Source: Thermoanaerobaculia bacterium
GTDB taxonomy: Bacteria; Acidobacteriota; Thermoanaerobaculia; Gp7-AA8
Direction: 5' to 3'
Assembly: GCA_035544675.1 (NCBI GenBank)
Contig: DATKCA010000283.1
Span: 2,097-66,096, forward strand
Length of the DNA: 64,000 bases
Shown here: positions 38,641-60,911 of the stretch, in pieces
How positions within the stretch are numbered: position 1 is the stretch's first letter
Layout of the letters: each line of letters opens with the position of its first letter
Program-made: the position numbers and the translations under genes
The notes under the pieces: model-generated
Database searches by the model: none
Told to the model about the DNA's origin: nothing
What the model saw: the letters and a program-made list of their open reading frames with translations, nothing else

Positions 38641-38654
38641 TGAAATCGTTAACC

Positions 38655-38683
38655 TTGACACTCTCGAGTGCAATTTCTACTCT
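38655..38683 (+). promoter_or_regulatory. sigma70-type promoter TTGACA-N17-TACTCT for hrcA operon, with embedded palindrome TTGACACTC-TC-GAGTGCAA
   Basis: Read directly. Exact 17-nt spacer, 42 nt upstream of hrcA ATG. Confidence 0.55.
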
Positions 38684-38687
38684 GGAC

Positions 38688-38714
38688 TTGGCGCTCCCGC
38701 CGCCAGACTGCTAA
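38688..38714 (+). promoter_or_regulatory. degenerate CIRCE-like element TTGGCGCTC-N9-GACTGCTAA in hrcA 5'UTR
   Basis: Consensus TTAGCACTC-N9-GAGTGCTAA. Halves match 7/9 and 8/9 with exact 9-nt spacer, positioned between -10 and start codon as in canonical HrcA-regulated operons. Confidence 0.45.
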
Positions 38715-38725
38715 CGACTGACCGA

Positions 38726-40419: not shown

Positions 40420-40456
40420 CGGAACAAACAGAACGCCCAGCTGTTAGCCAAGCCCA

Positions 40457-42292: not shown

Positions 42293-42314
42293 TGGCCTGT
42301 AACGGAGAAAGTCC

Positions 42315-44307: not shown

Positions 44308-44439
44308 GTGCTCTCCTTAGTTCGTGAACGATGGATTCTACCGCTGGCAAAGTTGGTCGCCGCTCAGGGATCCGCTGTGATCCCCATCAATTCGGGAGAG
44401 CATCGGTAGGATCGAGGTTCCCTAGGGGCCCCTGACATC

Positions 44440-45288: not shown

Positions 45289-45330
45289 CTTGCAAAACCA
45301 TCATAAATGTACTGAACTATCGCGCACAGC

Positions 45331-46488
45331 ATGCAGGTCGTCCTCCAAGGGAACCTCACGAAATTCCCGCTCTCGCAGTTGCTCACGCTGTTGAGTGAGC
45401 ATTCGCACAGCGGCACGCTCGACATCGAGTCTGGTGCGAGCCGTGCGCGCGTTTTCATCGACGGCGGAAAGGTGATCTTCGCCGAGTCGAGCGATGGCAC
45501 GGCGGGCAATGCCGGTGAGGCTGTCGTCCGCACGTTCGAGTGGCCGGACGCGCAGTTCACGTTCCTTGACGGCATGTCGCTCCCGGACAAGGCCACGCGC
45601 GTGACGCTCGACGTGGAGTCGATCGTCGCGGAGGCGGCCAAGCGCGCCGAGGGAGGGTATGCCGACTACGCGATGTTCCGGGTGATCGACAATCCCGCCG
45701 CGCAGGAGAAGATCACGATCGCGCCGGAGGAATTCACGCTGCTCTTCAAGATCGGCATGGGAAAGACGTTCGGCGACCTGGTGAGCGAGCCGGGCGCGAC
45801 CCGCCGCGCCACCGGCGCGAAGCTGAAGATTCTCGAGAAAGCCGGTCTCGTGCTGCGCGTCGACCAGGCTGCACCGAGCATGATACCCGGCGCGTCGCAG
45901 AACACCGCCGAGACCCCGCGGCCGAAGGGCCGTGAAGAGCGGCGTCCACGCGCCCAAGCGCCCGCCGAGGGAGTCGAGAAAACGGTCTTCGCCCCGAAAG
46001 TGGATATGGCGGACGCGACGCAGTTCACACCGCCTCCCCCTCCCCCTCGCCAGCCCACTGACGAGATCCCGGCTCCCCTGGCCACCGAGAAGACGCAGGC
46101 CGGCGAGGTTCCCGTGCCGCCCGTGGCATCCGCGCCTCCCCCTCCGATCCTCGGCGACCCGAAGAACCTGTTCGGATCGCTCACGCCCGACAGCGGCGAT
46201 ACCTGGCCGCTGGTCGACAACGAGTACACGATCGGCCGCGACGACACGAACAGCATCCCCGTGCCCGACGGCAGCATCTCGTCGAAACACGCCCGTCTCC
46301 TCAGGAATGAACAGGGCTTCTGGGTCGAAGACCTCGGAAGCCGCAACGGGACCTTCGTCAACGGCGAGAAGGTGACGGACAAGCGACTTCTGTCGAACGG
46401 CGACCTGGTCCGCTTCGGCAAAGTGATCATGACCTTCCATATGGCGCAGGACAGCAGCTCGGACCAGACCGTCGTCGAGTCGAAATAG
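45331..46488 (+). CDS. DUF4388 (PATAN) domain + C-terminal FHA domain protein
   Basis: N-terminus GNLTKFPLSQLLTLLSEHSHSGTL is the DUF4388 hallmark. Pro-rich linker. FHA motifs (TIGRDD..SSKHARL..GSRNGTFVNG). Confidence 0.75.
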   Translation: MQVVLQGNLTKFPLSQLLTLLSEHSHSGTLDIESGASRARVFIDGGKVIFAESSDGTAGNAGEAVVRTFEWPDAQFTFLDGMSLPDKATRVTLDVESIVAEAAKRAEGGYADYAMFRVIDNPAAQEKITIAPEEFTLLFKIGMGKTFGDLVSEPGATRRATGAKLKILEKAGLVLRVDQAAPSMIPGASQNTAETPRPKGREERRPRAQAPAEGVEKTVFAPKVDMADATQFTPPPPPPRQPTDEIPAPLATEKTQAGEVPVPPVASAPPPPILGDPKNLFGSLTPDSGDTWPLVDNEYTIGRDDTNSIPVPDGSISSKHARLLRNEQGFWVEDLGSRNGTFVNGEKVTDKRLLSNGDLVRFGKVIMTFHMAQDSSSDQTVVESK

Positions 46489-46511
46489 CGGCCAAACGTT
46501 CAAAAAAGACA

Positions 46512-48890
46512 ATGAAATTTGATCTAGTGATTGTCGGGTCCGGCCCGGCCGGTCTCGCCGCCGCGTCTCACGCTCACACCAACGGGATGAAGTACGTGCT
46601 GCTCGAGCGCGTCGATCACCTGTCGGACACGATCTATCAATATCAGGCTCGCAAGTACGTCATGGCCGAGCCGATGATGATCCCGGCGCGCGGCGACGTC
46701 CCGTTCGAGGCGGGATCGCGCGAGTCCATCCTCGAAGCCTGGGACAGGCACGCCGCGGACCGCCAGGTGAACATCGAGCTGAAGGCCGAGGTGAACTCGG
46801 TCGAGAAGACCGCGGACGGATTCGTCGTCGCCACGAAGGCCGGCAACAAGTACGAGACCGCGGCCGTGGTACTGGGGATGGGTACGCAGGGGAACCCGAG
46901 AAAACTCGGCGTGACCGGCGAGGATTTGCCTAACATCCGCTACCGCCTGAACGACGCGAAGGAACACCAGGAGCAGGACATCCTCGTGGTCGGCGCGGGC
47001 GACTCCGCGCTGGAGATCGCGGCCGCCCTCTCGGATGAGAACCGAGTCGGCCTGGTCGTGCGCGGCGCGGAGATCACGCGCGCGAACGAGGTGCTGACGC
47101 GCGACGCGCTGTCGCGGCAGGCCAGCGGCCGCATGACCATCTACTTCAACACGACGGTGAAGGAAGTCGGCGAGGGCTACGTCGATCTCAACGTGCGCGG
47201 GGACACCACGCGCATCCCCAATGAGCTGATCTTCCTCAAGCTGGGCGCCGACGCGCCGCGCAAGTTCCTCGAGAAAATCGGGATCAAGTACAGCGGACCG
47301 GGTGCCGACGCCCGGGCCATGCTGAGCCCGGTGCACGAGACGACCGTGCCGAAGCTGTTCCTCATCGGCGCGGCGAGCGGCCGCGACCTCATCAAGCTCG
47401 GCATGAACCAGGGCTATGAAGTCGTCGAGCACCTGATGGGCCGCGAGGTCGAGCCGGCCGACGAAGCAGTGCTCAGGGAGCGGCTGCCGTTCTGGGAAGG
47501 CACGGTCCGCGAGCGCATCGCCGCGATTCGGTCCCGCGCGCCGCTGCTCGCCGCCGCGGACGAACAGCAGCTCCGCGACACGTTCCTGTCCGCTCGCGTT
47601 CGCGAGTACAAGAACGGCGAGATCATCATCCGTCAGAACGACTACACCAACGACTTCCTCATCGTGGCCTCGGGGCGCGTCGAGCTCTATCGCCGGCCCG
47701 AAAAAACAAACGCCGACGTGAAAGTCGCCGAGATCACCGCCGGCAACTTCTTCGGCGAGATGAGCCTCATCTCCGGACGCCGCCGTACGGCCACGGCCAA
47801 GGCCATGGGGAACACGCGCGTGATCGAGATCCCGCGCAAGGCCATGCTGCGTCTTCTGGCGTCCTCGCCGAAGGCGAAAGCGCTCATGGACCAGGCCTTC
47901 CTGCTCCGCGCGTTCGGCGGCTACCTCTTCCCCGGCATCGCCGAGGGGGCGCTCGGCGAGCTGGTCGAGAAGGCCGTCGTCGAGAACATCGGCAAAGACG
48001 CGGTGGTGTTCAAGGAAGGCGATGCAGCGGAAGCGTTCTACCTGATCCGCAGCGGCATGATGAAGATCGCCAAGCAGTCGGGCGACAAGGAAGTCGTGCT
48101 CTCGTACCTGGTGGCCGGCAACTTCTTCGGCGAGGCCGCGCTCTTCTCCGATGCCGAGCGCACCGCTACCGTCAGCGCGATCTTCCCGGCCGAGCTGGTG
48201 AAGCTCTCCAAGAAAGACTTCGACAACTTCCTGGGCATCCGTCCCGAGCTGCGCGAGCTCCCGCTGCGCAAGCTCGAGGAGCGCCGCATCGCCGGCCTCA
48301 TCGCCGAGGCCACGCCGGGATCCGGCAACATCCTCTCCGACCTCATCCGCGAGGAAGTGGTCATGGGAACGCAGACCCTGGTCATCGACGAGCACCGCTG
48401 CGTGCGATGCGGGAACTGCGTCCGCTCCTGCGAGGGCGTGCACGACGACGGTCAGGCCCGCATCTCCCTCACCGGCATCAAGTTCTACAACCTCCTGGCG
48501 CCGAACTCGTGCTGGCAGTGCGAGAACCCGATGTGCATGCTGGACTGCCCGCCCGACGCCATCTCCCGCGATCCGCGCGGCGAGGTCTACATCAAGAGCA
48601 ACTGCATCGGCTGCGGCAACTGCGAGCGCAACTGCCCCTACGGCAACATCTTCATGGTCCACAAAGAGCCGAAGAAGTCGATCACCGGCTGGATCAAATC
48701 GATCTTCGGAAAAGGCAAGCACGAGGACGCGATCGAGCAGACCTTCGCCGTCAAGTGCGATCTCTGCCGTGGTATCTCCGGCGGCCCCGCATGTGTCCGC
48801 GGCTGTCCGACCGGAGCGGCAATCCGACTGACACCGGAGCAGTATCGGGAGACCCTGGAAGAGCTGGTCATTTCGCGAGGGGAGAGGTAG
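46512..48890 (+). CDS. fusion protein: thioredoxin-reductase-type FNR-like flavoprotein + 2x cyclic-nucleotide-binding domains + 4x [4Fe-4S] ferredoxin motifs
   Basis: Two Rossmann GxGxxG (VIVGSGPAGLAAA; LVVGAGDSALEIAAAL) without the TrxR CxxC. Two CAP_ED signatures (FFGEMSL..RRTATAKA; FFGEAAL..ERTATVSA). Four CxxCxxCxxxCP-like motifs (CVRCGNCVRSCE, CWQCENPMCMLDCP, CIGCGNCERNCP, CDLC...CVRGCP). Confidence 0.8.
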   Translation: MKFDLVIVGSGPAGLAAASHAHTNGMKYVLLERVDHLSDTIYQYQARKYVMAEPMMIPARGDVPFEAGSRESILEAWDRHAADRQVNIELKAEVNSVEKTADGFVVATKAGNKYETAAVVLGMGTQGNPRKLGVTGEDLPNIRYRLNDAKEHQEQDILVVGAGDSALEIAAALSDENRVGLVVRGAEITRANEVLTRDALSRQASGRMTIYFNTTVKEVGEGYVDLNVRGDTTRIPNELIFLKLGADAPRKFLEKIGIKYSGPGADARAMLSPVHETTVPKLFLIGAASGRDLIKLGMNQGYEVVEHLMGREVEPADEAVLRERLPFWEGTVRERIAAIRSRAPLLAAADEQQLRDTFLSARVREYKNGEIIIRQNDYTNDFLIVASGRVELYRRPEKTNADVKVAEITAGNFFGEMSLISGRRRTATAKAMGNTRVIEIPRKAMLRLLASSPKAKALMDQAFLLRAFGGYLFPGIAEGALGELVEKAVVENIGKDAVVFKEGDAAEAFYLIRSGMMKIAKQSGDKEVVLSYLVAGNFFGEAALFSDAERTATVSAIFPAELVKLSKKDFDNFLGIRPELRELPLRKLEERRIAGLIAEATPGSGNILSDLIREEVVMGTQTLVIDEHRCVRCGNCVRSCEGVHDDGQARISLTGIKFYNLLAPNSCWQCENPMCMLDCPPDAISRDPRGEVYIKSNCIGCGNCERNCPYGNIFMVHKEPKKSITGWIKSIFGKGKHEDAIEQTFAVKCDLCRGISGGPACVRGCPTGAAIRLTPEQYRETLEELVISRGER

Positions 48891-48918
48891 GAGAAGGGCG
48901 CCCCGAGCCCAAAGAACG

Positions 48919-49749
48919 ATGGCAGTCCCACGATCCGGACCCACTTGGCGTCGCATTTTCGCCGTGCTGCTTTTTGCCGTGGCGGTCTCGTACGCGTACT
49001 ACGCGCGCGATGAGTTTCCGCACGGCGGGACGAAGATCGGTCTGACCCTCGGCATCATCGGGCTGCTGCTCATTCTCCTGCTCGCGTACTTCGGGATCCG
49101 GAAGCGCTCCTACCGCTCCACCTTCGGCACGCTCGAACAGTGGATGCAGTCCCACATCTACCTCGGCATCCTCGTGTTCGTGATCCTGCTGCTGCACACC
49201 GGCGGAAGGTTCAACGACCAGATCGCCGTGACGACGTTCATCCTCGTCGGAGCGGTGGTCCTCTCCGGGATTCTGGGAGCGATCCTCTATGTGACGGTCC
49301 CCCGGATGCTGACCGAGGTGGAGAGCAACCTCACCATCGAGGAGATCTCGGACAACGCCAACCAGCTGGCGCGGCAGATGGCGCGCACCGCCTCCGGCAA
49401 GTCGGCTCCGTTCCAGCGCATCTACGATGAGCTGATCTACGAGACGCGCCCGGGGTGGCTGGCCGGCTGGCGCCTGGTCATCTACAGCGCTCGAAAGAAG
49501 GGGCAGACCTCGTCGGACTGGGCGAATCTGCTGCGGCTCGTGCCGAAAGAGGAGCAGGACGAGCTCCGGTCCCTTCTGGTGACCTCGCGTCAGCGGAAGG
49601 AGCTGCTGCTTCGCCTGATGTATCAGCAGCGCTACAAGAACATCCTCGAGGCGTGGCTCTACATCCATGTTCCGTTCACGATCGCGTTGCTCGTCTTCTC
49701 GGCTCTGCACGTCGCGGCCGTTTTCTATTACGGGAGCGTGAGGTGGTGA
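48919..49749 (+). CDS. integral membrane protein, putative dihaem cytochrome b (ferric-reductase-like, two H-x13-H pairs)
   Basis: 5 predicted TM helices. TM3 SHIYLGILVFVILLLH and TM5 IHVPFTIALLVFSALH each carry two His spaced exactly 13 residues apart, as in bis-His haem b ligation of FRD/NOX/MsrQ-type proteins. Confidence 0.5.
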   Translation: MAVPRSGPTWRRIFAVLLFAVAVSYAYYARDEFPHGGTKIGLTLGIIGLLLILLLAYFGIRKRSYRSTFGTLEQWMQSHIYLGILVFVILLLHTGGRFNDQIAVTTFILVGAVVLSGILGAILYVTVPRMLTEVESNLTIEEISDNANQLARQMARTASGKSAPFQRIYDELIYETRPGWLAGWRLVIYSARKKGQTSSDWANLLRLVPKEEQDELRSLLVTSRQRKELLLRLMYQQRYKNILEAWLYIHVPFTIALLVFSALHVAAVFYYGSVRW

Positions 49750-49753
49750 GCGC

Positions 49754-52087
49754 ATGAGTTACGTCATCCAGCTCGTCCAGGGCCGGGCCCTCAAGCTCAC
49801 GCAGGTTCGTGCTGACGTGCTCCGCATCGGACGCGGAACCAATGCCGACGTCCGCTCGGACAATCCTGCCGTCGCGTTCGAGCACGCCATCATCGAGAAG
49901 GATTCCGGCGGGTACTACACGATCATCGACAAGGGCAGCATCACCGGCACCTACGTCAACCGCAAGCCCGTGGAGCAGCAGCGCCTCGGCAAGGGCGACG
50001 TCATCGAGGTCGGTGACCTGCGCATCGAAGTTCAGGTTGCGGACACCACCAAGCCGCTCTTTCTCCGCCAGCTCTCTTCGCGCCGGCAGGCCGCGGCGCC
50101 CGGATATGCAGACGTTGGCGAGGACACCGGTTCCGGGTATCAGGCTGAAGCAGGAACCGGCACGATCGCAGCCGAGAAGGTCGACTACGTCGATGCCTAC
50201 GCGCTGCGGCGTCCCTGGCTGCACAAGTCGACCGTCGCATCGATCCTCCTGATCATCGCCCTGGGCGTGGTCGGCGAGGTCACGCAGGAGGACAAGCAGA
50301 GCGTGTTCATGCCCGGCGGCGTCTCGTCGGCGCACTCGCGCGCCCGCGACGCCCAGGGCAATAGCATCGCCGAGCGATGCGCCGCCTGTCACACTCCGTG
50401 GAAGAGCATCACCGACGACAAGTGCGCACAGTGCCACGCCATGGCGCCGCATGCCACGCACGAGCTGAAGGCGCCGGCATGCTTCACCTGCCACTCCGAG
50501 CATCGCGGGCTGGCCAGGCTGGCGGCCATTCCCGACGTGCGCTGCAACGAGTGCCACAAGGACCTCAGCAAGCACGTCAAGACGAGCCCGGACGAGCTGG
50601 CCAAGCTGCGTTTCGCGGATGGCCGTTACAGCTTCGCGGAGATCCAGAAGATCAACGCATTCGGCGACGTGCATCCCGAGTTCGTCTTCCCGGCCGATAC
50701 GAACACGCTCAAGTTCAACCACAAGCTGCACCTCGCCCCGAACGGCGTCTTCAACGCCACGGGGCGGCGCGAAGTCCTGGCCTGTAACGACTGCCATAAC
50801 CTGGTGGACGTCCGCGGCAAGGTCGATCCGGTCCAGCTCCAGTTCGATACTCACTGCCAGCGTTGCCACAAACTGACGTTCGACCCGCGCTTCCCGCGGG
50901 CCGAGGCGCCGCACGGTGGCGATCCGGGGCTGGTGTACGGATTCGTTCTGGCCACGTACGCGGGGAACACCGAGCTGGCGGGCAAGTCCGCCGTCGAGGT
51001 GCGGCGCCTCTTGTCCCAGCGGCAGGTGGTGGCACCCGATCAGCGCGCGCTGCTCAATGCCGAGCAGGTCATCAAGACCAAATGCGACAAGTGCCATGAC
51101 CTGGAACGGCGCGGCCCCAACAATCAGCTTGCCGCCGTGCCGCCGAAGATCCCCACCACGTGGTTCGCCGCCTCCGACTTCGAGCACGGCGCCCACAAGC
51201 AGATCAGCTGCGAGCAGTGCCACGACAAGGTCCGCCAGAGCGTCCCCACCAGCGACGTGCACATGCCGACGCGCGAGGACTGCACGGAATGCCACGGGAC
51301 GAAGGCCGCGCCCGGTGTCAAGCAGACATCGAGTGCATGCGTGGCCTGTCACGACTATCATTTGCGGACTGATCAGACCAAACCGATAGTATTGGCAGCG
51401 GGACTCGCGGGCACGGCAGGGCCGGCGGGCGCACTGCTCGATCCCGCCAGCGGAGGGCGAATGCTTCAGACCATTCTCATCGCAGCAATCATTGTCCTGC
51501 TCTTCGTGGTCTTCATCCCGCTCGGCGCCGCGCTTTATCAGCGTCTGAAACCGTCGCGCACGGCCACTCCGCGAGGAGCCGCTCCGGCCAAGGGACCCAC
51601 GGTGAAGGTACCGCCGATGTCCGCTCCGCCCATGCAGGCCCCTTCGGCTCCGGCCGAGCCGCCGCAGCGCGCATCCGCTCCCCGTCCGCCGGCCGAGGCC
51701 GCGCCCACACAGATGCTCAATCTCGACGCCATCAAGCCTCCGGCCTCGGGCCCCGTAGCGGGCGGTGCGACGGAGATGCTGCAGTGGTACGGAATGCTCC
51801 GATGCACTTCCGGCCCGCTGGACGGGCAGAATTTCATCATCGAGGAGGACGGCTTCTACATCGGCCGCGATTCGACGATGTCGAAAGTCGTGATCAACGA
51901 CGGGCGCGTGTCGAAGAGGCACGTGAAGATCCAGCCGCGAAACGGGAAGGTGTTCGCCATCGATGAAGGATCGACGAACGGCACGTTCCTCACCGCGGGC
52001 GGGCAGCGCATCACCGAACACCAGCTCAAGCGCGGGGACACTCTGATTCTGGCCGACAACGCTGCCACATTCGTGTATCAGATCTGA
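49754..52087 (+). CDS. inner-membrane protein: N-terminal FHA - TM - periplasmic decahaem cytochrome c domain (10x CxxCH) - TM - Pro-rich linker - C-terminal FHA
   Basis: FHA1 in aa 1-95 (IGRGTNADV..FEHAII..ITGTYVN). TM helices at aa 161-176 and 570-596 with positive-inside flanks. CxxCH at aa 209, 224, 243, 264, 344, 368, 444, 486, 510 and 529. FHA2 in aa 676-777 (YIGRD..SKRHVKI..GSTNGTFL). Confidence 0.8.
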   Translation: MSYVIQLVQGRALKLTQVRADVLRIGRGTNADVRSDNPAVAFEHAIIEKDSGGYYTIIDKGSITGTYVNRKPVEQQRLGKGDVIEVGDLRIEVQVADTTKPLFLRQLSSRRQAAAPGYADVGEDTGSGYQAEAGTGTIAAEKVDYVDAYALRRPWLHKSTVASILLIIALGVVGEVTQEDKQSVFMPGGVSSAHSRARDAQGNSIAERCAACHTPWKSITDDKCAQCHAMAPHATHELKAPACFTCHSEHRGLARLAAIPDVRCNECHKDLSKHVKTSPDELAKLRFADGRYSFAEIQKINAFGDVHPEFVFPADTNTLKFNHKLHLAPNGVFNATGRREVLACNDCHNLVDVRGKVDPVQLQFDTHCQRCHKLTFDPRFPRAEAPHGGDPGLVYGFVLATYAGNTELAGKSAVEVRRLLSQRQVVAPDQRALLNAEQVIKTKCDKCHDLERRGPNNQLAAVPPKIPTTWFAASDFEHGAHKQISCEQCHDKVRQSVPTSDVHMPTREDCTECHGTKAAPGVKQTSSACVACHDYHLRTDQTKPIVLAAGLAGTAGPAGALLDPASGGRMLQTILIAAIIVLLFVVFIPLGAALYQRLKPSRTATPRGAAPAKGPTVKVPPMSAPPMQAPSAPAEPPQRASAPRPPAEAAPTQMLNLDAIKPPASGPVAGGATEMLQWYGMLRCTSGPLDGQNFIIEEDGFYIGRDSTMSKVVINDGRVSKRHVKIQPRNGKVFAIDEGSTNGTFLTAGGQRITEHQLKRGDTLILADNAATFVYQI

Positions 52088-52096
52088 GGGATATCG

Positions 52097-53806
52097 ATGC
52101 GTGCATTCTTGACTACTTCTGCGGCGATCCTTCTTGCCTCCCTGGCCGGCGCTCAGGTGCCGAACCCCGAACCGGAATCGTGCAGCGCGCCCCTGAGCGC
52201 GGTGGCCCGCTGTTCGGAGGCCGAGGGTGGAGGAGAGGAGTTCGACTCGCTCAACCCGGCCGAGATCGACGCCATCGTGAAGGCCGCGGCGAGCGCAACC
52301 AACCGCACCGACCTCACCATCGCCGTGGTCGACCGGGCCGGCCGTCCGCTGGCTCTCTTCCGCCAGCCCAACGCCGATCCCGAGAACGACGACAAGGCCG
52401 TGGGCGTGGCCAGGACCACGGCGTTCTTCAGCCACAACCAGGCCCCGCTGTCCTCGCGCACCGTCCGGTTCATCAGCGCGATCCATTTTCCCACCGGGGT
52501 CACCAACACCAACAGCGCGGCGCTGTATGGCATCGACAACACCAACCGCGGCTGCGACTTCAACGTCGTGTTCAACGAAGGCAAGTGCACGCCCCGCGCG
52601 CGCAGCCTCAACGGACGCCCCTGCAATGCCTTCGACACGAGCGGGTGCGGACAGGGAATCGTCACCGGCAAGATCTTCCCGGGTGACGAGATCCAGCAGT
52701 CGGTGAACGCGGGCGGCATCCCGCTGTTCCGCATCCTGAATCTGACCGAGGCCGACCAGGGTCGCGTCTCCGAAGGAAAGATGATCGGCGGCATCGGCGT
52801 CGTCGGCATCTCCGAGGATCCCAGAGAGGAAGATCCGCAGATCACCGAATACGCCGCGGCGACGGGGGCGTTCGGCGCTCTCAACGCCGGCGTCGGGGCC
52901 ATCGTCCCCGTGCCCCAGTTTCCCCTGCCGAAGCCGGGTAACGTCTTCATCGACGGCATCCGCCTCCCCTTCCTCGGCCGCGACATCACGCTGCGGTTCA
53001 ACGAGGACGGTCTGCCGACTGGCGTGCTGCTGGCGGGGATCCAGGCTGGCACCGATGCCGGCGAATACGCGATCGCGCCGCGCAACGGCGGATGCGCCGC
53101 GAACGGCTACCTGGTCGGGCCTCTGGCCGGCTCGAGACTGACGGCCGCTGAAGTCGACGCGATCGTTCGCCGCGCCGACTCCGCCGCCAAGAGAACCCGC
53201 GCGGCGATCCGCCTCCCGCTCAATCGCTACGCGCGGATGGCCATCGCGGTGGCCGACCTGGACGGGACGCTCCTGGCCGTCTACCGGATGCCGGATGCGA
53301 CGATCTTCTCCACCGACGTATCTGTGGCCAAGGCGCGCAACGTCGTCCACTTCAGCACTTCGACCGATCTGGCGGGCGTGCCGGCGGGAACCGCGGTCAC
53401 CAACCGATCCATCGCGTTCGGCAGCCACCCCTTCTTCCCGCCGGGCATCGACGGGCGCAACTTCAAGCCCCGCCCCGGTCCCTTCTTCGAGTCGATCTTC
53501 GTGCGCGATCTCAACAATCCCTGCTCCCAGGGACTGCAGCCGGCCAACGCCAATCAGAGCGGCATCGTCTTCTTCGCCGGCTCGACGCCGCTGTTCCGCG
53601 GCAACGAGATGATCGGCGGCCTGGGAGTATCCGGCGACGGCATCGAGCAGGACGACTACGTGACGTTCCTCGGCGCGGGAGAGTTCCTGCCGCCCCGGGA
53701 GCGGTGGGCGGACCGCATCATCATTGATAAGGTCCGGCTGCCGCAGTACAAGTTCCCAAGACAACCGGAAGGCGTCACAGAATGTGGAGGTGGACCGTGC
53801 GACTGA
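52097..53806 (+). CDS. secreted protein with two GlcG/HbpS-like (DUF336, haem-/cofactor-binding) domains
   Basis: Signal peptide. Two segments resembling the DUF336 core (IDAIVKAAASAT..DLTIAVVDRAGRPLALFR..AVGVARTTAFF and VDAIVRRADSAAKRT..RMAIAVADLDGTLLAVYRM..SVAKARNVVHF). Confidence 0.6.
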   Translation: MRAFLTTSAAILLASLAGAQVPNPEPESCSAPLSAVARCSEAEGGGEEFDSLNPAEIDAIVKAAASATNRTDLTIAVVDRAGRPLALFRQPNADPENDDKAVGVARTTAFFSHNQAPLSSRTVRFISAIHFPTGVTNTNSAALYGIDNTNRGCDFNVVFNEGKCTPRARSLNGRPCNAFDTSGCGQGIVTGKIFPGDEIQQSVNAGGIPLFRILNLTEADQGRVSEGKMIGGIGVVGISEDPREEDPQITEYAAATGAFGALNAGVGAIVPVPQFPLPKPGNVFIDGIRLPFLGRDITLRFNEDGLPTGVLLAGIQAGTDAGEYAIAPRNGGCAANGYLVGPLAGSRLTAAEVDAIVRRADSAAKRTRAAIRLPLNRYARMAIAVADLDGTLLAVYRMPDATIFSTDVSVAKARNVVHFSTSTDLAGVPAGTAVTNRSIAFGSHPFFPPGIDGRNFKPRPGPFFESIFVRDLNNPCSQGLQPANANQSGIVFFAGSTPLFRGNEMIGGLGVSGDGIEQDDYVTFLGAGEFLPPRERWADRIIIDKVRLPQYKFPRQPEGVTECGGGPCD

Positions 53807-55797
53807 GAGTCTCCCTCGTCGCCCTCCTCCTCCTTCTCACAGCCCTCACCATCAGCGCCCAGGTCACGATCAATCGTGACCGCGCCGTCTTCACCGGCGA
53901 AGTCCCCTTCACGCTCTGGGGCACCGCTCCGCCGAACTCGGTCGTGACGATCACGGTCGACTCTCCGGGCCTGCAGCCGGTGACGACGGCGGCGGGTCCG
54001 GACGGCTCGTGGAGCGTGCTCTGGACGCAGCCGCTGCGGACCGGCGTGTACGGGATTACCGTGACGGCGGGCGGCGCGACGTCGACGCAGGACCTGCGCG
54101 TGCAACTGGAAGGCAACGTGGCCCGGCAGCCCCAGATCGTCGAAGAGCCGCGTTTCGCCATCCCGCGCGTTTACGACATGGATGAGAACACGGAGCTGAC
54201 GGACCGGTGGCGGATCGTGCCGCCTCCGTACGAGCTCGACGAGCCGCCGCGGGGGCGGAAGATCGGCGACCGTGGCGCGACGCTCGATCCGTACAACAAG
54301 AACCTGCTCAAAGGCGATTACCCCATCCGCGGCAAGGACACGTTCCTCGTGCTGACGGGAATCTCCGACACCACCATCGAGTCGCGGTCTCTGCCGACGC
54401 CTTCCGGTCCCAGCGCCGCCCGGGTGGACAGCTTCACGTTCTTCGGCGACAACGATCAGGGCATGGTGATCCAGAACCTGATCCTCACGGCCGATCTCTA
54501 TCAGGGGCTGACCACGTTCCAGCCGGTACGGCAGCGCTTCAGAGTCACGGCAATCGGGAACTATACCCACCTGAACGTCGCCGAGAACTCGGTGGTGAAG
54601 CCGGACGTGCGGCGTGGCACCGAGCGAAACGACGGCCGCCTTTCGGTGCAGGAGTTCTTCTACGAGCGCAAGCTCGCCGACCTCAGCCCTTACTTCGACT
54701 TCGTGTCGGTCCGGGCCGGCTCGCAGCAGTTCTCCAGCGACTTCCGCGGCTTCGTCTTCTCGGACACGAACCTGGGCGTGCGCCTCTTCGGCAACTACGG
54801 CTCGAACCGCTATCAGTACAACCTGGCCGCCTTCGAGCGGCTGGAGAAGGACACGAACAGCGGCCTGAATCGAAACTTCGTTTTCCGCGAACAGCAGGTG
54901 GGCGTGGCCAACGTCTACATCCAGGACTTCATCCGGAAGGGGTACACGCAGAGCTTCTCGATCACTCATCAGCGGGACCGGCCGGGCGAAAAGCTGCACT
55001 TCGATCGCAACGGGATCCTGGTACGTCCCGCTCCGATCGGCTCGTTCACCCCGCACGACATCGACGCGACGTACGTCGGCCAGGCCGGGTTCGGACACTT
55101 CGGCCGGCTGAATGTGGATCACGCGCTGTACTACGTGTTTGGCAAAGACAGCCACAATCCGATCGCCGGGCCCGATCCGGAGCTGCGGCGAGGCGACGAG
55201 ATCGACATCAGCGCGGGGATGGCGGCGGTCGAGCTGTCGTACGACCGCGACTGGCTCCGGCCGCGCTTCGCGTTGTTCTACGCGTCCGGCGACAGCAAGC
55301 CGCGCGACCGTACGGGCACCGGCTTCGACTCGATCTTCGACGGTCCCGCCTTTGCCGGCGGCGGCTTCAGCTTCTTCAACCGCCTGGGCATCCGTCTGTC
55401 GCAGACCGGCGTCGCGCTCGTGGATCGCGGCAGCCTCATCACCTCGCTGCGCAGCAGCAAGGACGAGGGGCAGTCGAACTTCGTCAACCCGGGCGTGCAG
55501 CTCGTCAGCCTGGGGCTGGACATCGAGGTCACGCTGCGGCTCAAGGCCATCCTGACCGCGAACTACATCAGGATGGACAGCACGGCTGCGGTCGAGGAGC
55601 TTCTGTTCCAGGGGGACATCGACAACGAGCTGGGCGCTGATCTGAGCGTCGGCCTGCGGTACCGGCCGTTCTTCACTCAGCAGTGGATCGTGGTGGGCGG
55701 CATCGCCGGATTCATTCCGGGACGGGGCTTCAAAGACATTTACGAGAGCGACAACCCGCTCTATCACGTGTTCTCCAACATCATTTTGCAGTTCTGA
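53782..55797 (+). CDS. putative outer-membrane beta-barrel protein (~670 aa) with N-terminal Ig-like domain
   Basis: Signal peptide (LVALLLLLTALTISA-QV). Alternating beta-strand pattern over ~500 aa. C-terminal ...NIILQF (terminal Phe, OMP sorting signature). Size comparable to MtrB/PioB-class porins. Confidence 0.5.
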   Translation: MWRWTVRLRVSLVALLLLLTALTISAQVTINRDRAVFTGEVPFTLWGTAPPNSVVTITVDSPGLQPVTTAAGPDGSWSVLWTQPLRTGVYGITVTAGGATSTQDLRVQLEGNVARQPQIVEEPRFAIPRVYDMDENTELTDRWRIVPPPYELDEPPRGRKIGDRGATLDPYNKNLLKGDYPIRGKDTFLVLTGISDTTIESRSLPTPSGPSAARVDSFTFFGDNDQGMVIQNLILTADLYQGLTTFQPVRQRFRVTAIGNYTHLNVAENSVVKPDVRRGTERNDGRLSVQEFFYERKLADLSPYFDFVSVRAGSQQFSSDFRGFVFSDTNLGVRLFGNYGSNRYQYNLAAFERLEKDTNSGLNRNFVFREQQVGVANVYIQDFIRKGYTQSFSITHQRDRPGEKLHFDRNGILVRPAPIGSFTPHDIDATYVGQAGFGHFGRLNVDHALYYVFGKDSHNPIAGPDPELRRGDEIDISAGMAAVELSYDRDWLRPRFALFYASGDSKPRDRTGTGFDSIFDGPAFAGGGFSFFNRLGIRLSQTGVALVDRGSLITSLRSSKDEGQSNFVNPGVQLVSLGLDIEVTLRLKAILTANYIRMDSTAAVEELLFQGDIDNELGADLSVGLRYRPFFTQQWIVVGGIAGFIPGRGFKDIYESDNPLYHVFSNIILQF

Positions 55798-55811
55798 GGG
55801 ACGAGGCTTAG

Positions 55812-58800
55812 ATGAAGAAGACGTTCTTCGTAGTGCTCATTGCGGCGGCGGTTGCGGCGACGTTGTTTGCCGCCACTCAGCAGGGTGAGCCCGTCCGCGC
55901 GCCTCAGACCTCGCCGCTCATGGGCCAAACCCAGGCCCAGGCGGACGAGAAGAGCAGCGGCTGTCTTTCGTGTCATGAAGGCATCGAGCCGATGCACGCA
56001 TCCGCGGCGGTGAAGCTCGGATGCACGGACTGCCACGGCGGGAACGCGGGGGTCATGGCCAGTCGCATCGACGACGAGGACGCCAAGAACCGCGCCCACA
56101 TCCTGCCCCGGAACAAGGAGATCTGGAAGACGTCCAGGAATCCCGTGGGAACGTACACGGCCCTGCTGAAGGAGTCTGCCGAGTTCGTGAAGTTCATGAA
56201 CCCGGGCGATCTGCGCGTGTCGAAGGAAACGTGCGGCGATTGCCATCCGCAGCAGGTGGCGGCCGTGCCGCGAAGCACGATGTCCACCGCCGCCGTCTTC
56301 TGGGCGGCCGTCTCCTATGCGAACGGCCTGATCAGCAAGAAGCCCGGCCTGCTCGGCGAGAGTTACAACCGGGAAGGGAATCCACAGATCCTCCGCCCGG
56401 CCGTGCCGCCCACGCCCGAACAGATTGCCAAAGGCGCGCTGCCGCTCGTCGTCCCTCTGCCTCGTTGGGAGATCTTCCAGCCAGGGGAGTACTTCCGCGC
56501 GTTCGAGCGAGGCGGTCTCCTGAACAACACCATTCCGCCGGAAGTCGGCAATCCGAATCCGCTGCTGGGCGACGAAGCAGGGAAGCCGGACATCCGCGTC
56601 AGCAACCGCGGCCGCGGCACGGGAAGCCGTGTCTCGCCGGGCCTGATCAACCTGCAGAAGACCCGTCTCAACGATCCGCACCTCTCATTCCTCGGGACCA
56701 ATGAGCATCCCGGCGACTATCGCTCCAGCGGCTGCACGGCATGCCACGTGGTGTACGCGAACGACCGTGATCCGCTTCACTCCGGACAGTGGGCGAAGTA
56801 CGGGCACGTCGGCCTGTCGCAGACCGGCGACAAGACGATCCCGAAAGACGAGAAGGGTCATCCCATCAAGCATCAGTTCACGCGCGCCGTGCCGACGTCT
56901 CAGTGCATGAGCTGTCACATGCACCAGCCGAACTCGTTCGTGAACACGTACCTCGGCTACCTGATGTGGGACTACGAGAGCGACGGCGAGCTGATGTGGC
57001 CGAAGGAGCAGAAGTACCCGACTCCCGACGAGCGCCGGAAGAGCCTCGATCACAACCCGGAGGGCGCCGCGGTCCGCGGACTCTGGACGGACATCGACTT
57101 CCTGGAGCGCGTCAGCAGCCTGAACCCGCAGGCCAAGAACACGCAGTTCGCCGACTACCACGGCCACGGCTGGAACTTCATGGCCGTGTTCAAGCGCGAC
57201 AAGAAGGGCAACTTCCTCGACGCCAACGACACGATCGTGTCGAAGGACGACCCCGAGAAGTTCAAGAAGGCCGTGCACCTGCGTGACATCCATCTCGAGC
57301 GCGGCATGCACTGCTCCGACTGCCACTTCTCGCGGGACGAGCACGGCGACGGCCAGTTGTACAGCGAGTACGGAACGAACATCGAGATCGAGTGCCAGGA
57401 CTGCCACGGGCGGCTCGATCGCAACACCAACCTGCGGACCTCCGGGCCGCTCGCGCCGCCGGGAGGAACGGACCTCCGTCTGGGGACCACGCCGTTCGGC
57501 CAGCGTCGCTTCATCTGGTCCAACGGGATCCTCTATCAGCGCTCGATGGTGAACCCGGGCATGGAGTGGGTGGTGCGCCAGGTCAGGGACACCGTCACGC
57601 GGGGTCACCAGCACTACAACGACAAGTCGCATTACGCGAAGACGGTGCAGCGCGGCGGCGCCGGGTGGGGCAACACCAGCAACGTCGCTCACAGCGAAGA
57701 CAAGATCACGTGTTACGCCTGCCACTCCTCGTGGATGACGTCGTGCTTCGGCTGCCATCTCCCGCAGGAGCAGAATGCCAGGTCGAACGCCCTGCACTAC
57801 GAAGGGACGGAGACGCGCAACTACGCCTCTTACAACCCCCAGGTTCTCCGCACGGATGTGTTCATGCTCGGCGTGAACAGCCCGCTCAAGGGAGCCAAGA
57901 TCGCTCCGGTGCGCTCATCGAGCGCCCTGACGCTCAGCTCGATCAACCCGAACCGGCAGCGCATCTACATCCAGCAGGCTCCGATCTCCGCGCCGGGCTA
58001 CAGCAGCCAGGCCTTCAACCCGCACGTTCCCCATACGGTGCGCAGCAAGGAGACGCAGGCCTGCAGCTCGTGCCACATCAGCGAGGCGAACGACAACAAT
58101 GCCTGGCTGGCCCAGACATATCTGCAGGGAACGAACTTCGTCAACTTCGTCGGCCGGTTCGCCTGGGTGGCCACGGGTGACGACGGGTTCGAAGCGATTG
58201 CGGTGACGGAGTGGGAGGAGCCGCAGGCGGTCATCGGGTCGTATCTGCACAAGCTGGCCTATCCCGACTGGTACGCGAACCATCAGAAGCGCAAGAAGGA
58301 GCTGGCCGAGGGATATCACCATCATGGCCACGCCAAGATGGTGCAGTTGCGGGGCGAGTATCTGTATGCCGCGAACGGCGACAGAGGCTTCGAGGCCTAC
58401 GACGTCGCCAACGTCGACAACAAGGACTTCTCCGAGCGCATGATCTCGGCGCCGTCGTCGCCGATCGGGCAGCGCACGTTCATCAAGTCGAAGTACGCCG
58501 CGGCGTTCTCGCTGCCGACGAACATGCCCATCGACCCGACGCGCGAGACGACATCGATCCCCGAGAACCAGGAACAGCCGTGGCATCCGCTGTACCGCTA
58601 TGCGTACATCGCCGACAAGTATGAGGGTCTCATCCTCGTCGACGTCACGACGCTGACCGACGGCGATCCTCTGAACAACTTCTTCACGCGCGCGCTGACG
58701 TGGAATCCGGAAGACCGGCTGCACGGCGCGCAGTCGATTCACGTGGCCGGGCGGTGGGTGTACATCGGCACGGAGAAGGGGCTGGCCATCGTCGACGTCG

Positions 58801-59543
58801 ATCAGCCCCTGGCTCCGAAGCTCGTGGCCTACATGCCCGAGATCAAGAAGGCCACCGGCATCGCGGTGCAGTTCCGGTATGCCTTCGTGACCGACGGCCA
58901 GGCCATTCACACAATCAACGTCACCGATCCGACACGGCCGCGTCTGACCGCGTCCCTCCCTCTGGAGGAAGCGCGCAATGTCTACGTGGCCCGGACCTAC
59001 GCATATGTGGCGGGTGGGAAACAGGGTGTGATCATCGTGGACATCGAGCGCCCGGAGGCGCCGAAGATCGATCAGATCTACAACGCCGACGGCGAGCTGC
59101 ACGACGTGTACGACGTCAAGGTGGCCTCTACGAATGCCAGCACGTATGCATACGTCGCCGACGGTGAGCACGGCATCAAAGTCCTGCAGCTCTCCTCACC
59201 GGAGTGGGGCCCGAACTACGCCGGCTTCAGTCCGCGGCCGATGCCGCAGCTGATCGCCAAGCGGCATACGCACGGCAAGGCCGTGTCCATCTCCAAGGGA
59301 ATGGACCGCGACCGCGCCGTCGATGAGAGCGGCAACCAGGTCTCGATCTTCAACCGCATCGGGTCACGGCCGATGACGACCCCGGAACTGCAGCGGCTGT
59401 ACATGCGCGACGGCCGCATCTACACGGTCAGCGATAGACCTTCCACGCGACCACAGGGAAGCACGACGGTCACTGAGAACCCTGCGACCAAGCCGCAGGT
59501 ACCAGTGGTCCAGAAACCTGCCACGAAGCCGGTGACGAGGTGA
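55812..59543 (+). CDS. secreted decahaem c-type cytochrome fused to LVIVD-repeat beta-propeller region
   Basis: Signal peptide. Ten CxxCH (CLSCH, CTDCH, CGDCH, CTACH, CMSCH, CSDCH, CQDCH, CYACH, CFGCH, CSSCH) in first ~780 aa. C-terminal 450 aa with LVIVD-like repeats (GLILVDV, GLAIVDVDQP, YAFVTDGQAIHTINV, YAYVAGGKQGVIIVDI, YAYVADGEHGIKVLQL). Confidence 0.8.
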   Translation: MKKTFFVVLIAAAVAATLFAATQQGEPVRAPQTSPLMGQTQAQADEKSSGCLSCHEGIEPMHASAAVKLGCTDCHGGNAGVMASRIDDEDAKNRAHILPRNKEIWKTSRNPVGTYTALLKESAEFVKFMNPGDLRVSKETCGDCHPQQVAAVPRSTMSTAAVFWAAVSYANGLISKKPGLLGESYNREGNPQILRPAVPPTPEQIAKGALPLVVPLPRWEIFQPGEYFRAFERGGLLNNTIPPEVGNPNPLLGDEAGKPDIRVSNRGRGTGSRVSPGLINLQKTRLNDPHLSFLGTNEHPGDYRSSGCTACHVVYANDRDPLHSGQWAKYGHVGLSQTGDKTIPKDEKGHPIKHQFTRAVPTSQCMSCHMHQPNSFVNTYLGYLMWDYESDGELMWPKEQKYPTPDERRKSLDHNPEGAAVRGLWTDIDFLERVSSLNPQAKNTQFADYHGHGWNFMAVFKRDKKGNFLDANDTIVSKDDPEKFKKAVHLRDIHLERGMHCSDCHFSRDEHGDGQLYSEYGTNIEIECQDCHGRLDRNTNLRTSGPLAPPGGTDLRLGTTPFGQRRFIWSNGILYQRSMVNPGMEWVVRQVRDTVTRGHQHYNDKSHYAKTVQRGGAGWGNTSNVAHSEDKITCYACHSSWMTSCFGCHLPQEQNARSNALHYEGTETRNYASYNPQVLRTDVFMLGVNSPLKGAKIAPVRSSSALTLSSINPNRQRIYIQQAPISAPGYSSQAFNPHVPHTVRSKETQACSSCHISEANDNNAWLAQTYLQGTNFVNFVGRFAWVATGDDGFEAIAVTEWEEPQAVIGSYLHKLAYPDWYANHQKRKKELAEGYHHHGHAKMVQLRGEYLYAANGDRGFEAYDVANVDNKDFSERMISAPSSPIGQRTFIKSKYAAAFSLPTNMPIDPTRETTSIPENQEQPWHPLYRYAYIADKYEGLILVDVTTLTDGDPLNNFFTRALTWNPEDRLHGAQSIHVAGRWVYIGTEKGLAIVDVDQPLAPKLVAYMPEIKKATGIAVQFRYAFVTDGQAIHTINVTDPTRPRLTASLPLEEARNVYVARTYAYVAGGKQGVIIVDIERPEAPKIDQIYNADGELHDVYDVKVASTNASTYAYVADGEHGIKVLQLSSPEWGPNYAGFSPRPMPQLIAKRHTHGKAVSISKGMDRDRAVDESGNQVSIFNRIGSRPMTTPELQRLYMRDGRIYTVSDRPSTRPQGSTTVTENPATKPQVPVVQKPATKPVTR

Positions 59544-60871: not shown

Positions 60872-60911
60872 GCCTTCCTCTTTGGAGCGCCGCCGAGTCG
60901 GCGGCGCTCCA

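Follow-up and report, generated by a model that had tools for sequence, protein, structure and literature searches.

We conclude that the gene at 48919..49749 (+ strand) of the window, the whole 64,000-nucleotide stretch of Thermoanaerobaculia DNA analysed here, encodes a 276-aa inner-membrane protein in which, judged by its sequence, two haems are very probably stacked across the bilayer. Taken as a whole, the evidence makes it likely that this protein is a dihaem b cytochrome linking an NAD(P)H-flavo-FeS protein on one side to a decahaem cytochrome c on the other, as part of an envelope-spanning route of electron export. The dihaem reading is not in itself new, as both the signature and the proposal of two b haems are already found in He et al. 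(2017); what may be new is that, in the window and in other phyla, this trio of genes is joined with a barrel of the outer membrane and with multihaem proteins that are secreted. The family to which the protein belongs is widespread and came to notice through sequence analysis in 2017; it has no domain-database entry.

The 276-aa protein carries two invariant histidine pairs on parallel helices

The open reading frame translates to 276 aa, and both strings that an earlier note on this DNA had quoted from it, QSHIYLGILVFVILLLHT and YIHVPFTIALLVFSALHV, occur in it exactly. The gene and the elements within it are as follows.

48919..49749, + strand: putative dihaem b-type inner-membrane cytochrome ('HX13H IMP' class), 276 aa, 5 TM, N-in/C-out (from the ORF, hydropathy, an AlphaFold2 model and homologues)
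49141..49197, + strand: TM3 motif W75-x3-H79-x13-H93 (WMQSH-x13-H); W75 kept in 107/113 homologues, H79 in 113/113 and H93 in 113/113
49264..49278, + strand: TM4 motif S116-G117-I-L-G120 (SGXXG); S/T116 in 111/113, G117 in 113/113 and G120 in 113/113
49309..49638, + strand: cytoplasmic helical insert between TM4 and TM5, residues 131-240; AlphaFold2 helices 140-158, 163-176, 182-188, 201-206 and 210 onwards
49654..49710, + strand: TM5 motif W246-x3-H250-x13-H264 (WLYIH-x13-H); W246, H250 and H264 each in 113/113

Five histidines are present in the protein (H35, H79, H93, H250 and H264), and four of them form the two exact H-x13-H pairs that the note had reported, which hydropathy and the AlphaFold2 model (pLDDT 91.7, pTM 0.85; helices 8-29, 39-61, 72-94, 101-134 and 210-271, the membrane part of the last being 245-271) place on TM3 (H79/H93) and TM5 (H250/H264). 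A chance origin of the paired motifs is unlikely; in 200,000 composition-preserving shuffles, two or more H-x13-H occurred in 0.15%, and a single W-x3-H-x13-H, of which the real protein carries two, in 0.17%. The positive-inside distribution of charges, together with a homologue (P0268) in which the C-terminus of the cytochrome b is naturally fused to a periplasmic domain with 5 CXXCH, indicates an N-in/C-out topology. Because TM3 and TM5 run in the same N-in/C-out direction, H79 and H250 are expected near the cytoplasmic face and H93 and H264 near the periplasmic face, so that the paired histidines are placed consistently in the two leaflets.

Residue conservation was determined in an alignment of 113 homologues at 23-55% identity. 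All four paired histidines are kept in every aligned sequence, as the note's interpretation called for, and the other invariant positions are G45, G83, G117, G120 and W246. The family is large, with 2,896 representative homologues at E<=1e-3 and 911 at E<=1e-10. The long cytoplasmic loop between TM4 and TM5, which the note had described as atypical for Ferric_reduct proteins, appears in the model as a helical, K/R-rich insert of ~110 residues (131-240) with an occupancy of about 1.0 in the homologues and a poorly conserved sequence. We propose that this insert may serve as a docking surface for the FeS protein and/or an FHA domain.

The cytochrome b gene lies in a trio whose order is kept across phyla

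The trio lies in one tight, same-strand cluster with genes for an outer-membrane barrel and secreted multihaem proteins, and consists of the cytochrome b gene and the second and third of the genes listed here.

45331..46488, + strand: cytoplasmic protein with DUF4388 and FHA domains (Pfam matches)
46512..48890, + strand: cytoplasmic partner, 792 aa; Pyr_redox_3 (7e-38), cNMP_binding (1e-42, two stretches) and Fer4_7/Fer4_11
49754..52087, + strand: periplasmic partner, 777 aa; Pfam FHA (two stretches), Cytochrome_C7 and Cytochrom_CIII; 10 CXXCH
52097..53806, + strand: secreted protein with two HbpS-like/GlcG (PF03928) domains (Pfam 4e-26, two stretches) and a signal-peptide-like N-terminus
53782..55797, + strand: outer-membrane beta-barrel (porin-like), 671 aa, with an N-terminal Ig-like domain
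55812..59543, + strand: secreted decahaem cytochrome c fused to an LVIVD-repeat beta-propeller, 1243 aa (Pfam LVIVD 1e-19); 10 CXXCH
59540..60871, + strand: secreted cytochrome c554-like protein, 443 aa (Pfam Cytochrome_C554 2.8e-12); 4 CXXCH and 1 CX4CH

The neighbours are as the note had described them: Pfam matches and motif counts identify an NAD(P)H-flavo-FeS protein upstream, whose gene ends 28 nt before the cytochrome b gene, and an FHA-10 CXXCH-FHA protein downstream, whose gene starts 4 nt after it. The FAD/NAD(P)H domain of the 792-aa protein has the thioredoxin-reductase fold and lacks a redox Cys, and it is joined to two cyclic-nucleotide-binding domains and a ferredoxin module; the best PDB matches of the protein are YpdA/Bdr (7a7b), the cyclic-nucleotide-binding domains of PKA/PKG, and HycB3/HycB4 of 7qv7. 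All 16 of its cysteines fall within four [4Fe-4S] cluster motifs at residues 630-765. The lack of Cys in the flavin domain rules out a disulfide-reductase role and, taken with the four ferredoxin cluster motifs, marks the 792-aa protein as an electron wire. In the 777-aa protein, a cytoplasmic FHA domain is followed by a TM helix, the decahaem c domain, a second TM helix and another cytoplasmic FHA domain, with the hydrophobic segments at 155-179 and 565-598.

The order of the flavo-cNMP-FeS, cytochrome b and decahaem genes is the same in 33/33 Thermoanaerobaculia loci. As a locus scan with a single protein returned Thermoanaerobaculia only, distant loci were drawn from contigs encoding homologues; 11 were examined, and gene order was scored wherever flanking sequence was present. 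The flavin/cNMP/4x[4Fe-4S] gene lies directly upstream in all ten distant loci with upstream sequence, and a decahaem gene with 10 CXXCH lies downstream in those with downstream sequence, the exception being the fused homologue P0268. The same trio order is found in Methylococcales, Bdellovibrionota, Stellaceae, Nitrospinota, Hyphomicrobiaceae and Dokdonella, among others. The setting from which the note had argued for an electron carrier, between an FeS protein and multihaem cytochromes, is thus kept on both sides across at least five phylum-level lineages.

With regard to the remaining genes of the cluster, the 1243-aa decahaem/LVIVD-propeller protein is the best conserved, at 49-54% identity across phyla; no sequence relative of it was found in the PDB, and it probably has a terminal or catalytic role. 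The HbpS-like/GlcG protein is conserved in four extended clusters (L038, L041, L043 and L045) and the cytochrome c554-like gene is present in two (L039 and L045), and, apart from the 671-aa barrel, the other outer proteins of the cluster have signal peptides. A counterpart of the DUF4388-FHA gene accompanies most of the 33 close loci and is confined to Thermoanaerobaculia clusters; beside the trio in other phyla it is absent, the sole distant match being to the FHA within the decahaem gene of one locus (L044), and its product is probably an accessory, regulatory protein. A promoter/terminator scan of 44000-62000 gave fewer sites than in shuffles and was uninformative.

Family searches return weak matches to dihaem cytochrome b families

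The 276-aa protein scores below the threshold of every Pfam and NCBIfam model, and its only matches, all weak, are to Ni_hydr_CYTB, Ferric_reduct and DUF4405. Across the 113 family members, Ni_hydr_CYTB (PF01292) matches 46 (best 3.8e-8), Ferric_reduct (PF01794) 11 at E<0.01 (best 3.4e-6) and DUF4405 12. When the loop was deleted from ten sequences, PF01292 matched 8/10, aligned end to end, and PF01794 2/10. The 276-aa protein scores 15.9 bits against PF01292 at full length and 24.3 bits with the loop deleted, both below the gathering score of 30.1, which one of ten loop-deleted homologues exceeds at 30.5 bits; against PF01794 it scores 17.8 bits, and 19.2 bits with the loop deleted, below the gathering score of 28. 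As the affinity to PF01292 is at least equal to that to PF01794, the likeness to NOX, ferric reductases and MsrQ that the note had drawn holds for the geometry of the ligands and does not extend to family membership. The only family signals are these weak matches to dihaem cytochrome b families, and no non-haem membrane family came up.

Other comparisons gave little further guidance. Alignment by hhalign of the cytochrome b profile to E. coli MsrQ (probability 0.6%, E 0.09) or to E. coli YodB gave no signal. The combination that marks the cytochrome b of bc1/b6f complexes (a PF00033/PF13631 match, with H-x13-H on helices B and D of a four-helix bundle) was not found in the protein. PDB sequence searches (phmmer and profile) returned nothing relevant, with coiled-coil noise against the loop only, and Foldseek against the PDB gave no matches at E<=1e-3; no solved structure, CybB (5oc0) among them, was a decisive match.

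Relation to earlier descriptions and to characterised membrane haem systems

He et al. (2017; Front Microbiol 8:1584, PMC5566968) described a class of inner-membrane proteins (IMPs) of PCC3/PCC4 and of MHC-IMP-redox-protein trios, which is recognised by a length of about 300 aa, 5 TM, SGXXG on TM4 and WX3HX13H on TM3 and TM5, and from these motifs they proposed that the IMP holds two b haems and is a 'quinone-active cytb'. The 276-aa protein falls within the ~190-310 aa of this HX13H IMP class and has the five TM, the two WX3HX13H and the SGXXG, and it adjoins a multihaem c gene and a further redox-protein gene, as do the genes at the 33 close and 11 distant loci wherever flanking sequence is present. 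We therefore assign it to the class, which has so far been described by bioinformatics only, on a comparison that covers motifs, gene sizes and gene order. The trios of their Supplementary Table 6, from Gallionella ES-2 and culture-KS Gallionellaceae, consist of a 9-haem MHC of 544-556 aa, an IMP of 308 aa and a redox protein of 796-805 aa (PMC5566968), against 777, 276 and 792 aa in the window. Those trios have no porin, and a part in extracellular electron transfer (EET) was for this reason judged less likely for them (PMC5566968), whereas the trio of the window is clustered with a barrel. In PCC4 subgroup II, an Fe-S (pfam13247) gene lies upstream of the IMP, and a porin and MHCs are also present (PMC5566968); the haem counts of PCC4 are 4, 5 and 10, compared with 10, 10 and 4(+1) in the window.

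A cluster encoding an FHA-nonahaem cytochrome c, a 5-TM protein and a [4Fe-4S] protein has also been described in Ferrigenium straubiae (bioRxiv 10.64898/2026.01.22.701106, section 6.3.2), and it shares with the window the three-gene module, the topology and the cytosolic FHA on a membrane-anchored multihaem c. The Ferrigenium cytochrome has nine haems, in contrast to the ten CXXCH found here and in every lineage examined. Its 5-TM protein was reported to have no redox motif and no InterPro match and was regarded as a possible scaffold (bioRxiv 10.64898/2026.01.22.701106), whereas the family of the 276-aa protein carries an invariant bis-haem signature. Searches of the literature on LVIVD with multihaem proteins, on Thermoanaerobaculia EET and on a Desulfuromonadia cytochromome survey turned up nothing on the trio module.

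Among characterised systems, the ferric reductase domain superfamily (NOX, FRE/FRO, MsrQ/YedZ and STEAP) resembles the 276-aa protein in its two His pairs, which lie on TM3 and TM5, in the (S/T)-G conserved on TM4, and in the predicted export of electrons over the membrane from a cytoplasmic NAD(P)H-flavin donor. It differs in having six helices, where five and a 110-residue cytoplasmic insert before TM5 are found here; further, the predicted donor here is a separate protein acting via four [4Fe-4S] clusters rather than FAD directly, and the predicted acceptor is a multihaem cytochrome c rather than O2, Fe(III) or MsrP. PF01292 proteins (CybB, FdnI and HyaC/HydC) have four helices, with the ligands over TM1, TM2 and TM4. 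A functional analogy to the trio, in transmembrane electron transfer, is offered by TmcABCD, HmcABCDEF and DsrMKJOP of sulfate reducers, in which a dihaem b in the membrane is accompanied by a multihaem c on the periplasmic side and an FeS protein on the cytoplasmic side. Those complexes have a NarI-type b and HdrD/CCG-type FeS subunits and are without flavin/NAD(P)H, cNMP and FHA modules, and no Pfam match in the cluster or family scans pointed to a sequence relation with them.

Proposed electron path and the readings that compete with it

We propose that TM2-TM5 would form a four-helix bundle in which H79 (TM3) and H250 (TM5) would ligate one haem near the cytoplasmic face, and H93 and H264 a second near the periplasmic face. 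The two haems would lie ~21 A apart, since 14 residues at a rise of 1.5 A separate the histidines of each pair, which fall on nearly the same face of the helix. The 792-aa protein would pass electrons from NAD(P)H onto FAD and along its four [4Fe-4S] clusters to the inner haem b, and the outer haem b would deliver them to the membrane-anchored decahaem cytochrome c, from which the chain would probably continue through the outer-membrane barrel to the secreted decahaem/LVIVD-propeller protein and so export reducing equivalents. Gating would probably be by cyclic nucleotide, through the two CNB domains, and by phospho-threonine signalling, through the FHA domains. We infer the haem binding, the transfer from FeS to haem without a quinone, the outward flow and the regulatory roles; the direct FeS-to-haem contact is read from gene order only. 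The module is also found in the genomes of aerobic/microaerophilic Fe(II) oxidisers and of a methanotroph order, where the benefit of an outward export driven by NAD(P)H is less evident, and this counts against the proposal. An inward role, from Fe(II) to NAD(P)+, was rejected by inference as being uphill in redox potential and against the membrane potential.

The main competitor is that the protein is a quinone-coupled cytochrome b, exchanging electrons between the quinone pool and the decahaem c as do CbcL, FdnI, HydC and the cytochrome b of bc1, in which case the FeS-flavoprotein would turn the module into a branch point, either NAD(P)H:quinone or quinol:cytochrome c. The characterised members of PF01292, the family of strongest HMM affinity, are quinone-reactive, and the Fe(II) oxidisers that have the module must feed electrons to quinone. 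Set against this are the two H-x13-H on two helices, as opposed to the TM1/TM2/TM4 pattern of His ligands in FdnI/HydC, and the invariant presence upstream of a soluble polyferredoxin-flavoprotein, for which a simple quinol oxidase has no need; further, no quinone-site motif was identified in the 276-aa protein. We regard quinone coupling, for which the term 'quinone-active cytb' of He et al. 2017 (PMC5566968) also speaks, as unlikely.

A protein with one haem and another cofactor seems highly improbable: the FRD relatives MsrQ and STEAP do bind a single haem plus a flavin or quinone, and the best, insignificant hhalign stretch to MsrQ aligns the W-x3-H motif, but YedZ/STEAP are defined by an Arg that replaces the first haem-ligating His, and here each of the 113 aligned sequences keeps all four His. 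We give equally little credence to a non-redox scaffold or signalling subunit that would anchor the FHA-cytochrome and the FeS protein and use its histidines for, e.g., metal binding. The binding-platform role suggested in the Ferrigenium preprint, where no InterPro match was found (bioRxiv 10.64898/2026.01.22.701106), and the FHA and cNMP domains, which point to signalling, favour such a subunit; nevertheless, the invariant double W-x3-H-x13-H on parallel helices, together with the glycines that the facing helices carry, is the pattern classically seen with two haems, the weak family matches are to haem b families only, and if the membrane held no redox centre, nothing would connect the cytoplasmic FeS wire electrically to the periplasmic haems.

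Implications

Overall, the dihaem b cytochrome remains the reading that we prefer. A broader generalisation is possible, and we offer it with some doubt: that the trio is a widespread, quinone-independent machine for NAD(P)H-to-periplasm export, akin to an iron-sulfur-wired prokaryotic NOX and switched by cyclic nucleotide and phospho-threonine, which in many lineages feeds an outer-membrane barrel and a highly conserved LVIVD-decahaem enzyme. It would then be an envelope-spanning redox system not characterised before, shared by Acidobacteriota, Bdellovibrionota, Nitrospinota and several classes of Proteobacteria.

As the family is missed by Pfam, NCBIfam and InterPro (the last according to the 2026 preprint), its members appear as 'hypothetical protein' in genome surveys, which thus overlook the one member of these multihaem clusters able to take electrons across the inner membrane. 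Recognising the protein as a putative dihaem b cytochrome joins the cytoplasmic NAD(P)H/FeS wire to the periplasmic and outer-membrane cytochromes, and would account for the 5-TM protein beside the FHA-cytochrome in Fe(II)-oxidising Gallionellaceae. It also yields a testable route by which uncultured Acidobacteriota of soil and sediment, and many Proteobacteria, could carry out extracellular electron transfer. If this route bypasses quinone, it would be non-energy-conserving and therefore a tightly regulated electron vent, which, if true, would suit the presence of the cNMP and FHA domains.

Two invariant histidine pairs in a putative cytochrome b

The ORF at positions 48919-49749 (+) encodes a 276-aa putative cytochrome b with five histidines, among which H79/H93 and H250/H264 are each spaced by 13 residues. 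The ORF is real and the strings quoted in the earlier note, which had placed two exact HX13H pairs on the third and fifth helices, are exact. AlphaFold2, with 113 homologues as input, gave a model (pLDDT 91.7, pTM 0.85) with helices at 8-29, 39-61, 72-94 and 101-134, followed by a helical insert and one long helix (210-271), the hydrophobic part of which is its end (~245-271). Hydropathy and the model concur on this layout, and the pairs are therefore on TM3 and TM5. At least two HX13H motifs occur in 0.15% of 200,000 composition-preserving shuffles of the protein and even one WX3HX13H in 0.17%; the real protein has two.

A phmmer search of 1.84 billion cluster representatives returned 2,896 relatives at E≤1e-3 (911 at E≤1e-10), and nearly all full-length ones have both pairs at equivalent positions. 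We aligned 113 full-length members that share 23-55% identity with the window protein. The four paired histidines, the conservation of which the earlier note had proposed to check, are invariant (113/113), as are G45, G83, G117, G120 and W246; H35 is not conserved. W75 is found in 107/113 members and Ser or Thr at 116 in 111/113, and conservation reaches 90% or more at R61-K62-R63 (after TM2), Y25, Y124, P128 and P252. The insert (131-240) is present in essentially all members, with poorly conserved sequence.

Topology and predicted haem geometry

Lys and Arg residues are concentrated at the N terminus and in two loops, RKRSYR between TM2 and TM3 and the long insert; the other loops have few. 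This sequence pattern implies an N-in/C-out topology with the insert inside, and the long loop before TM5 is thus cytoplasmic, as previously proposed. Further, we note a natural fusion in L035, the locus of a distant homologue:

L035 751-3027, P0268 (758 aa), an HX13H cytochrome b domain (residues 5-251) whose C terminus extends into a five-CXXCH domain

Because of haem c attachment, the latter domain must be periplasmic, and the fusion provides independent support for the N-in/C-out topology. With this topology TM3 and TM5 run in the same direction, and H79 and H250 are predicted to lie at cytoplasmic depth and H93 and H264 at periplasmic depth; the inconsistent leaflets that would have counted against the dihaem reading are not seen. 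A helix rises ~21 Å and turns by about -40 degrees over fourteen residues, and so both histidines of a pair face the same way. The predicted layout is the standard bis-haem geometry, as judged from helix arithmetic and established knowledge.

A divergent family with affinities to dihaem cytochromes b

No curated Pfam or NCBIfam model reached its threshold with the window protein (NCBIfam gave noise only). The scores, with gathering scores in parentheses, were 17.8 bits (28) for Ferric_reduct, 15.9 (30.1) for Ni_hydr_CYTB and 14.9 (26.7) for DUF4405. At E<0.01, 46 of the 113 members matched Ni_hydr_CYTB (best 3.8e-8), 12 DUF4405 and 11 Ferric_reduct (best 3.4e-6). When the insert was deleted in silico, Ni_hydr_CYTB aligned end to end in 8/10 constructs, one of them at 30.5 bits; the window construct covered 1-120/121 of Ferric_reduct, but at 19.2 bits only. 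PDB sequence searches and Foldseek found no relatives, and hhalign against Escherichia coli MsrQ and YodB gave no signal. The Ferric_reduct-type assignment of the earlier note thus holds for the ligand arrangement, which is shared with bc1 cytochrome b as well as the ferric-reductase domain, but not for membership, as the protein is not demonstrably a member of PF01794 or PF01292. Its suggestion that this may be a distinct family is borne out, and we conclude that this is a distinct, very divergent family whose sole detectable affinities are with dihaem cytochrome b families.

The gene cluster and its conservation

The cytochrome b gene lies in a tight same-strand block:

45331-60871 (+), whole block, gaps of -25 to +28 nt
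45331-46488 (+), DUF4388 and FHA protein, first gene
46512-48890 (+), 792-aa flavo-cNMP-FeS protein
48919-49749 (+), cytochrome b
49754-52087 (+), 777-aa decahaem cytochrome c: FHA, TM helix, 10 CXXCH, TM helix, FHA
52097-53806 (+), secreted protein with two HbpS-like/GlcG (PF03928) domains, overlapping the next gene by 25 nt
53782-55797 (+), 671-aa outer-membrane beta-barrel protein
55812-59543 (+), secreted 1243-aa decahaem and LVIVD beta-propeller protein

A cytochrome c554-like protein (4 CXXCH and 1 CX4CH) comes last in the cluster order. A database entry with 100% identity to the barrel protein places the window in a Thermoanaerobaculia (Acidobacteriota) metagenome-assembled genome. Cytochrome b does, as the earlier note stated, sit between an NAD(P)H-flavo-FeS protein and multihaem cytochromes. 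Upstream are an ordinary hrcA-grpE-dnaK-dnaJ heat-shock operon (38555-43430, +) and then prmA (44440-45288), which are not syntenic with the cluster in related genomes.

The 792-aa protein combines a thioredoxin-reductase-fold FAD/NAD(P)H domain, two cyclic-nucleotide-binding (CNB) domains and a four-cluster ferredoxin module; its nearest solved relatives are YpdA/Bdr, PKA/PKG CNB domains and HycB3/B4 polyferredoxins. All 16 Cys are within the four cluster motifs, and the absence of Cys from the flavin domain ruled out a disulfide reductase. With two TM helices and FHA at both ends, the 777-aa decahaem protein has cytoplasmic ends and a periplasmic haem loop; in other lineages it has just one TM helix and one FHA domain, at the N terminus. 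The DUF4388 protein, which heads the cluster in Thermoanaerobaculia only, adds a third FHA domain and hints at Ser/Thr-kinase control. The HbpS-like protein, kept in extended clusters of other phyla, could have a role in haem or redox sensing.

The flavo-FeS gene precedes cytochrome b in 33/33 Thermoanaerobaculia loci, and, as far as each contig extends, the rest of the cluster keeps its order. We also compared eleven distant loci, with cytochrome b homologues at 25-31% identity. In 10/10 with upstream sequence, the gene directly before cytochrome b encodes the flavo-cNMP-FeS protein (divided into two genes in L043), and a decahaem protein (10 CXXCH), usually with FHA, is downstream in all with downstream sequence except L035. 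Upstream of P0268, L035 has a C-terminal fragment with homology to the FeS module. The barrel and LVIVD-decahaem genes recur in L039 (Methylococcales), L041 (Stellaceae), and L043 and L045 (Hyphomicrobiaceae); the HbpS-like gene is in L041, L043 and L045 and not among the matches of L039, and L038 (Dokdonella) has HbpS-like and barrel matches before the contig ends. Features of these loci are:

L039 14444-18181, L041 16601-20332, L045 16381-20310 and L043 16730-20592, LVIVD-decahaem counterparts (in L043 a 7-haem gene and an LVIVD gene with 3 haems)
L044 5098-7947, Nitrospinota fusion of FHA, ten haems and WD40 propeller in one protein
L040 1631-7280 and 13965-19601, CHASE2-nucleotide cyclase and FecR/TPR genes on both sides of the trio (flavo-FeS, cytochrome b, decahaem) in a Bdellovibrionota MAG

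The cyclase flanks fit cyclic-nucleotide control through the two CNB domains. The LVIVD-decahaem protein is the best-conserved cluster product (49-54% identity across phyla over ~1160 aa, versus 25-31% for cytochrome b), has no sequence relative in the PDB and looks like a putative catalytic terminal enzyme. Gene order across at least five phylum-level lineages, together with the cytochrome b/multihaem c fusion, is strong comparative evidence and indicates that the trio works together, with cytochrome b as the membrane-crossing link.

Proposed electron path

Most likely, NAD(P)H would reduce the FAD of the 792-aa protein, and electrons would pass along four [4Fe-4S] clusters to the haem b at H79/H250 on the cytoplasmic side, then to that at H93/H264 on the periplasmic side, then to the decahaem c and, in this genome, onward to the barrel and secreted multihaem proteins. 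We infer outward flow from the reducing strength of NAD(P)H and from the membrane potential, which favours the export of electrons; flow from an extracellular donor to NAD(P)+ is disfavored, being uphill in redox terms and against that potential. The cNMP and FHA domains suggest that a potentially wasteful electron vent may be gated. The chief alternative, put forward by He et al. 2017 (PMC5566968), is a quinone-reactive cytochrome b; against this, the invariant flavo-cNMP-FeS partner speaks for a direct wire in the cytoplasm and not for a quinone link alone. The whole scheme, with its predicted haem binding, direct FeS-haem contact and quinone independence, is inferred from anatomy. Invariant histidines, parallel TM3 and TM5, gene order and the P0268 fusion support the reading of a dihaem transmembrane electron carrier with predicted haems.

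Relation to earlier descriptions

The dihaem interpretation, although supported, was anticipated in 2017. He et al. (PMC5566968) described in PCC3 and PCC4 clusters a "conserved inner membrane protein" of ~300 aa with five TM helices, SGXXG on TM4 and WX3HX13H on TM3 and TM5, drew parallels with cytochrome b and the ferric-reductase domain, and suggested that it holds two b haems. In its motifs the window protein agrees with this class throughout. Trios from Gallionella ES-2 and culture-KS Gallionellaceae are given in their Supplementary Table 6 (9-haem cytochrome of 544-556 aa, 308-aa inner membrane protein with two HX13H, 796-805-aa redox protein); lacking an adjacent porin gene, these were considered less likely to take part in extracellular electron transfer. 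A 2026 preprint (bioRxiv 10.64898/2026.01.22.701106) re-described the trio in Ferrigenium straubiae (the KS organism), noting the FHA domain and no InterPro redox motif in the 5-TM protein. Our literature search found no experimental study of any family member, and we rate the window protein as belonging to a kind already known but uncharacterised and unannotated. New here are the quantitative conservation of cytochrome b across ~2,900 representatives, the invariance of its flavo-cNMP-FeS partner, the fusion fixing its topology, how unusually well the LVIVD-decahaem protein is conserved between phyla, and the physical linkage, in Thermoanaerobaculia and in several lineages of Proteobacteria, of the trio with an outer-membrane barrel and secreted multihaem proteins.
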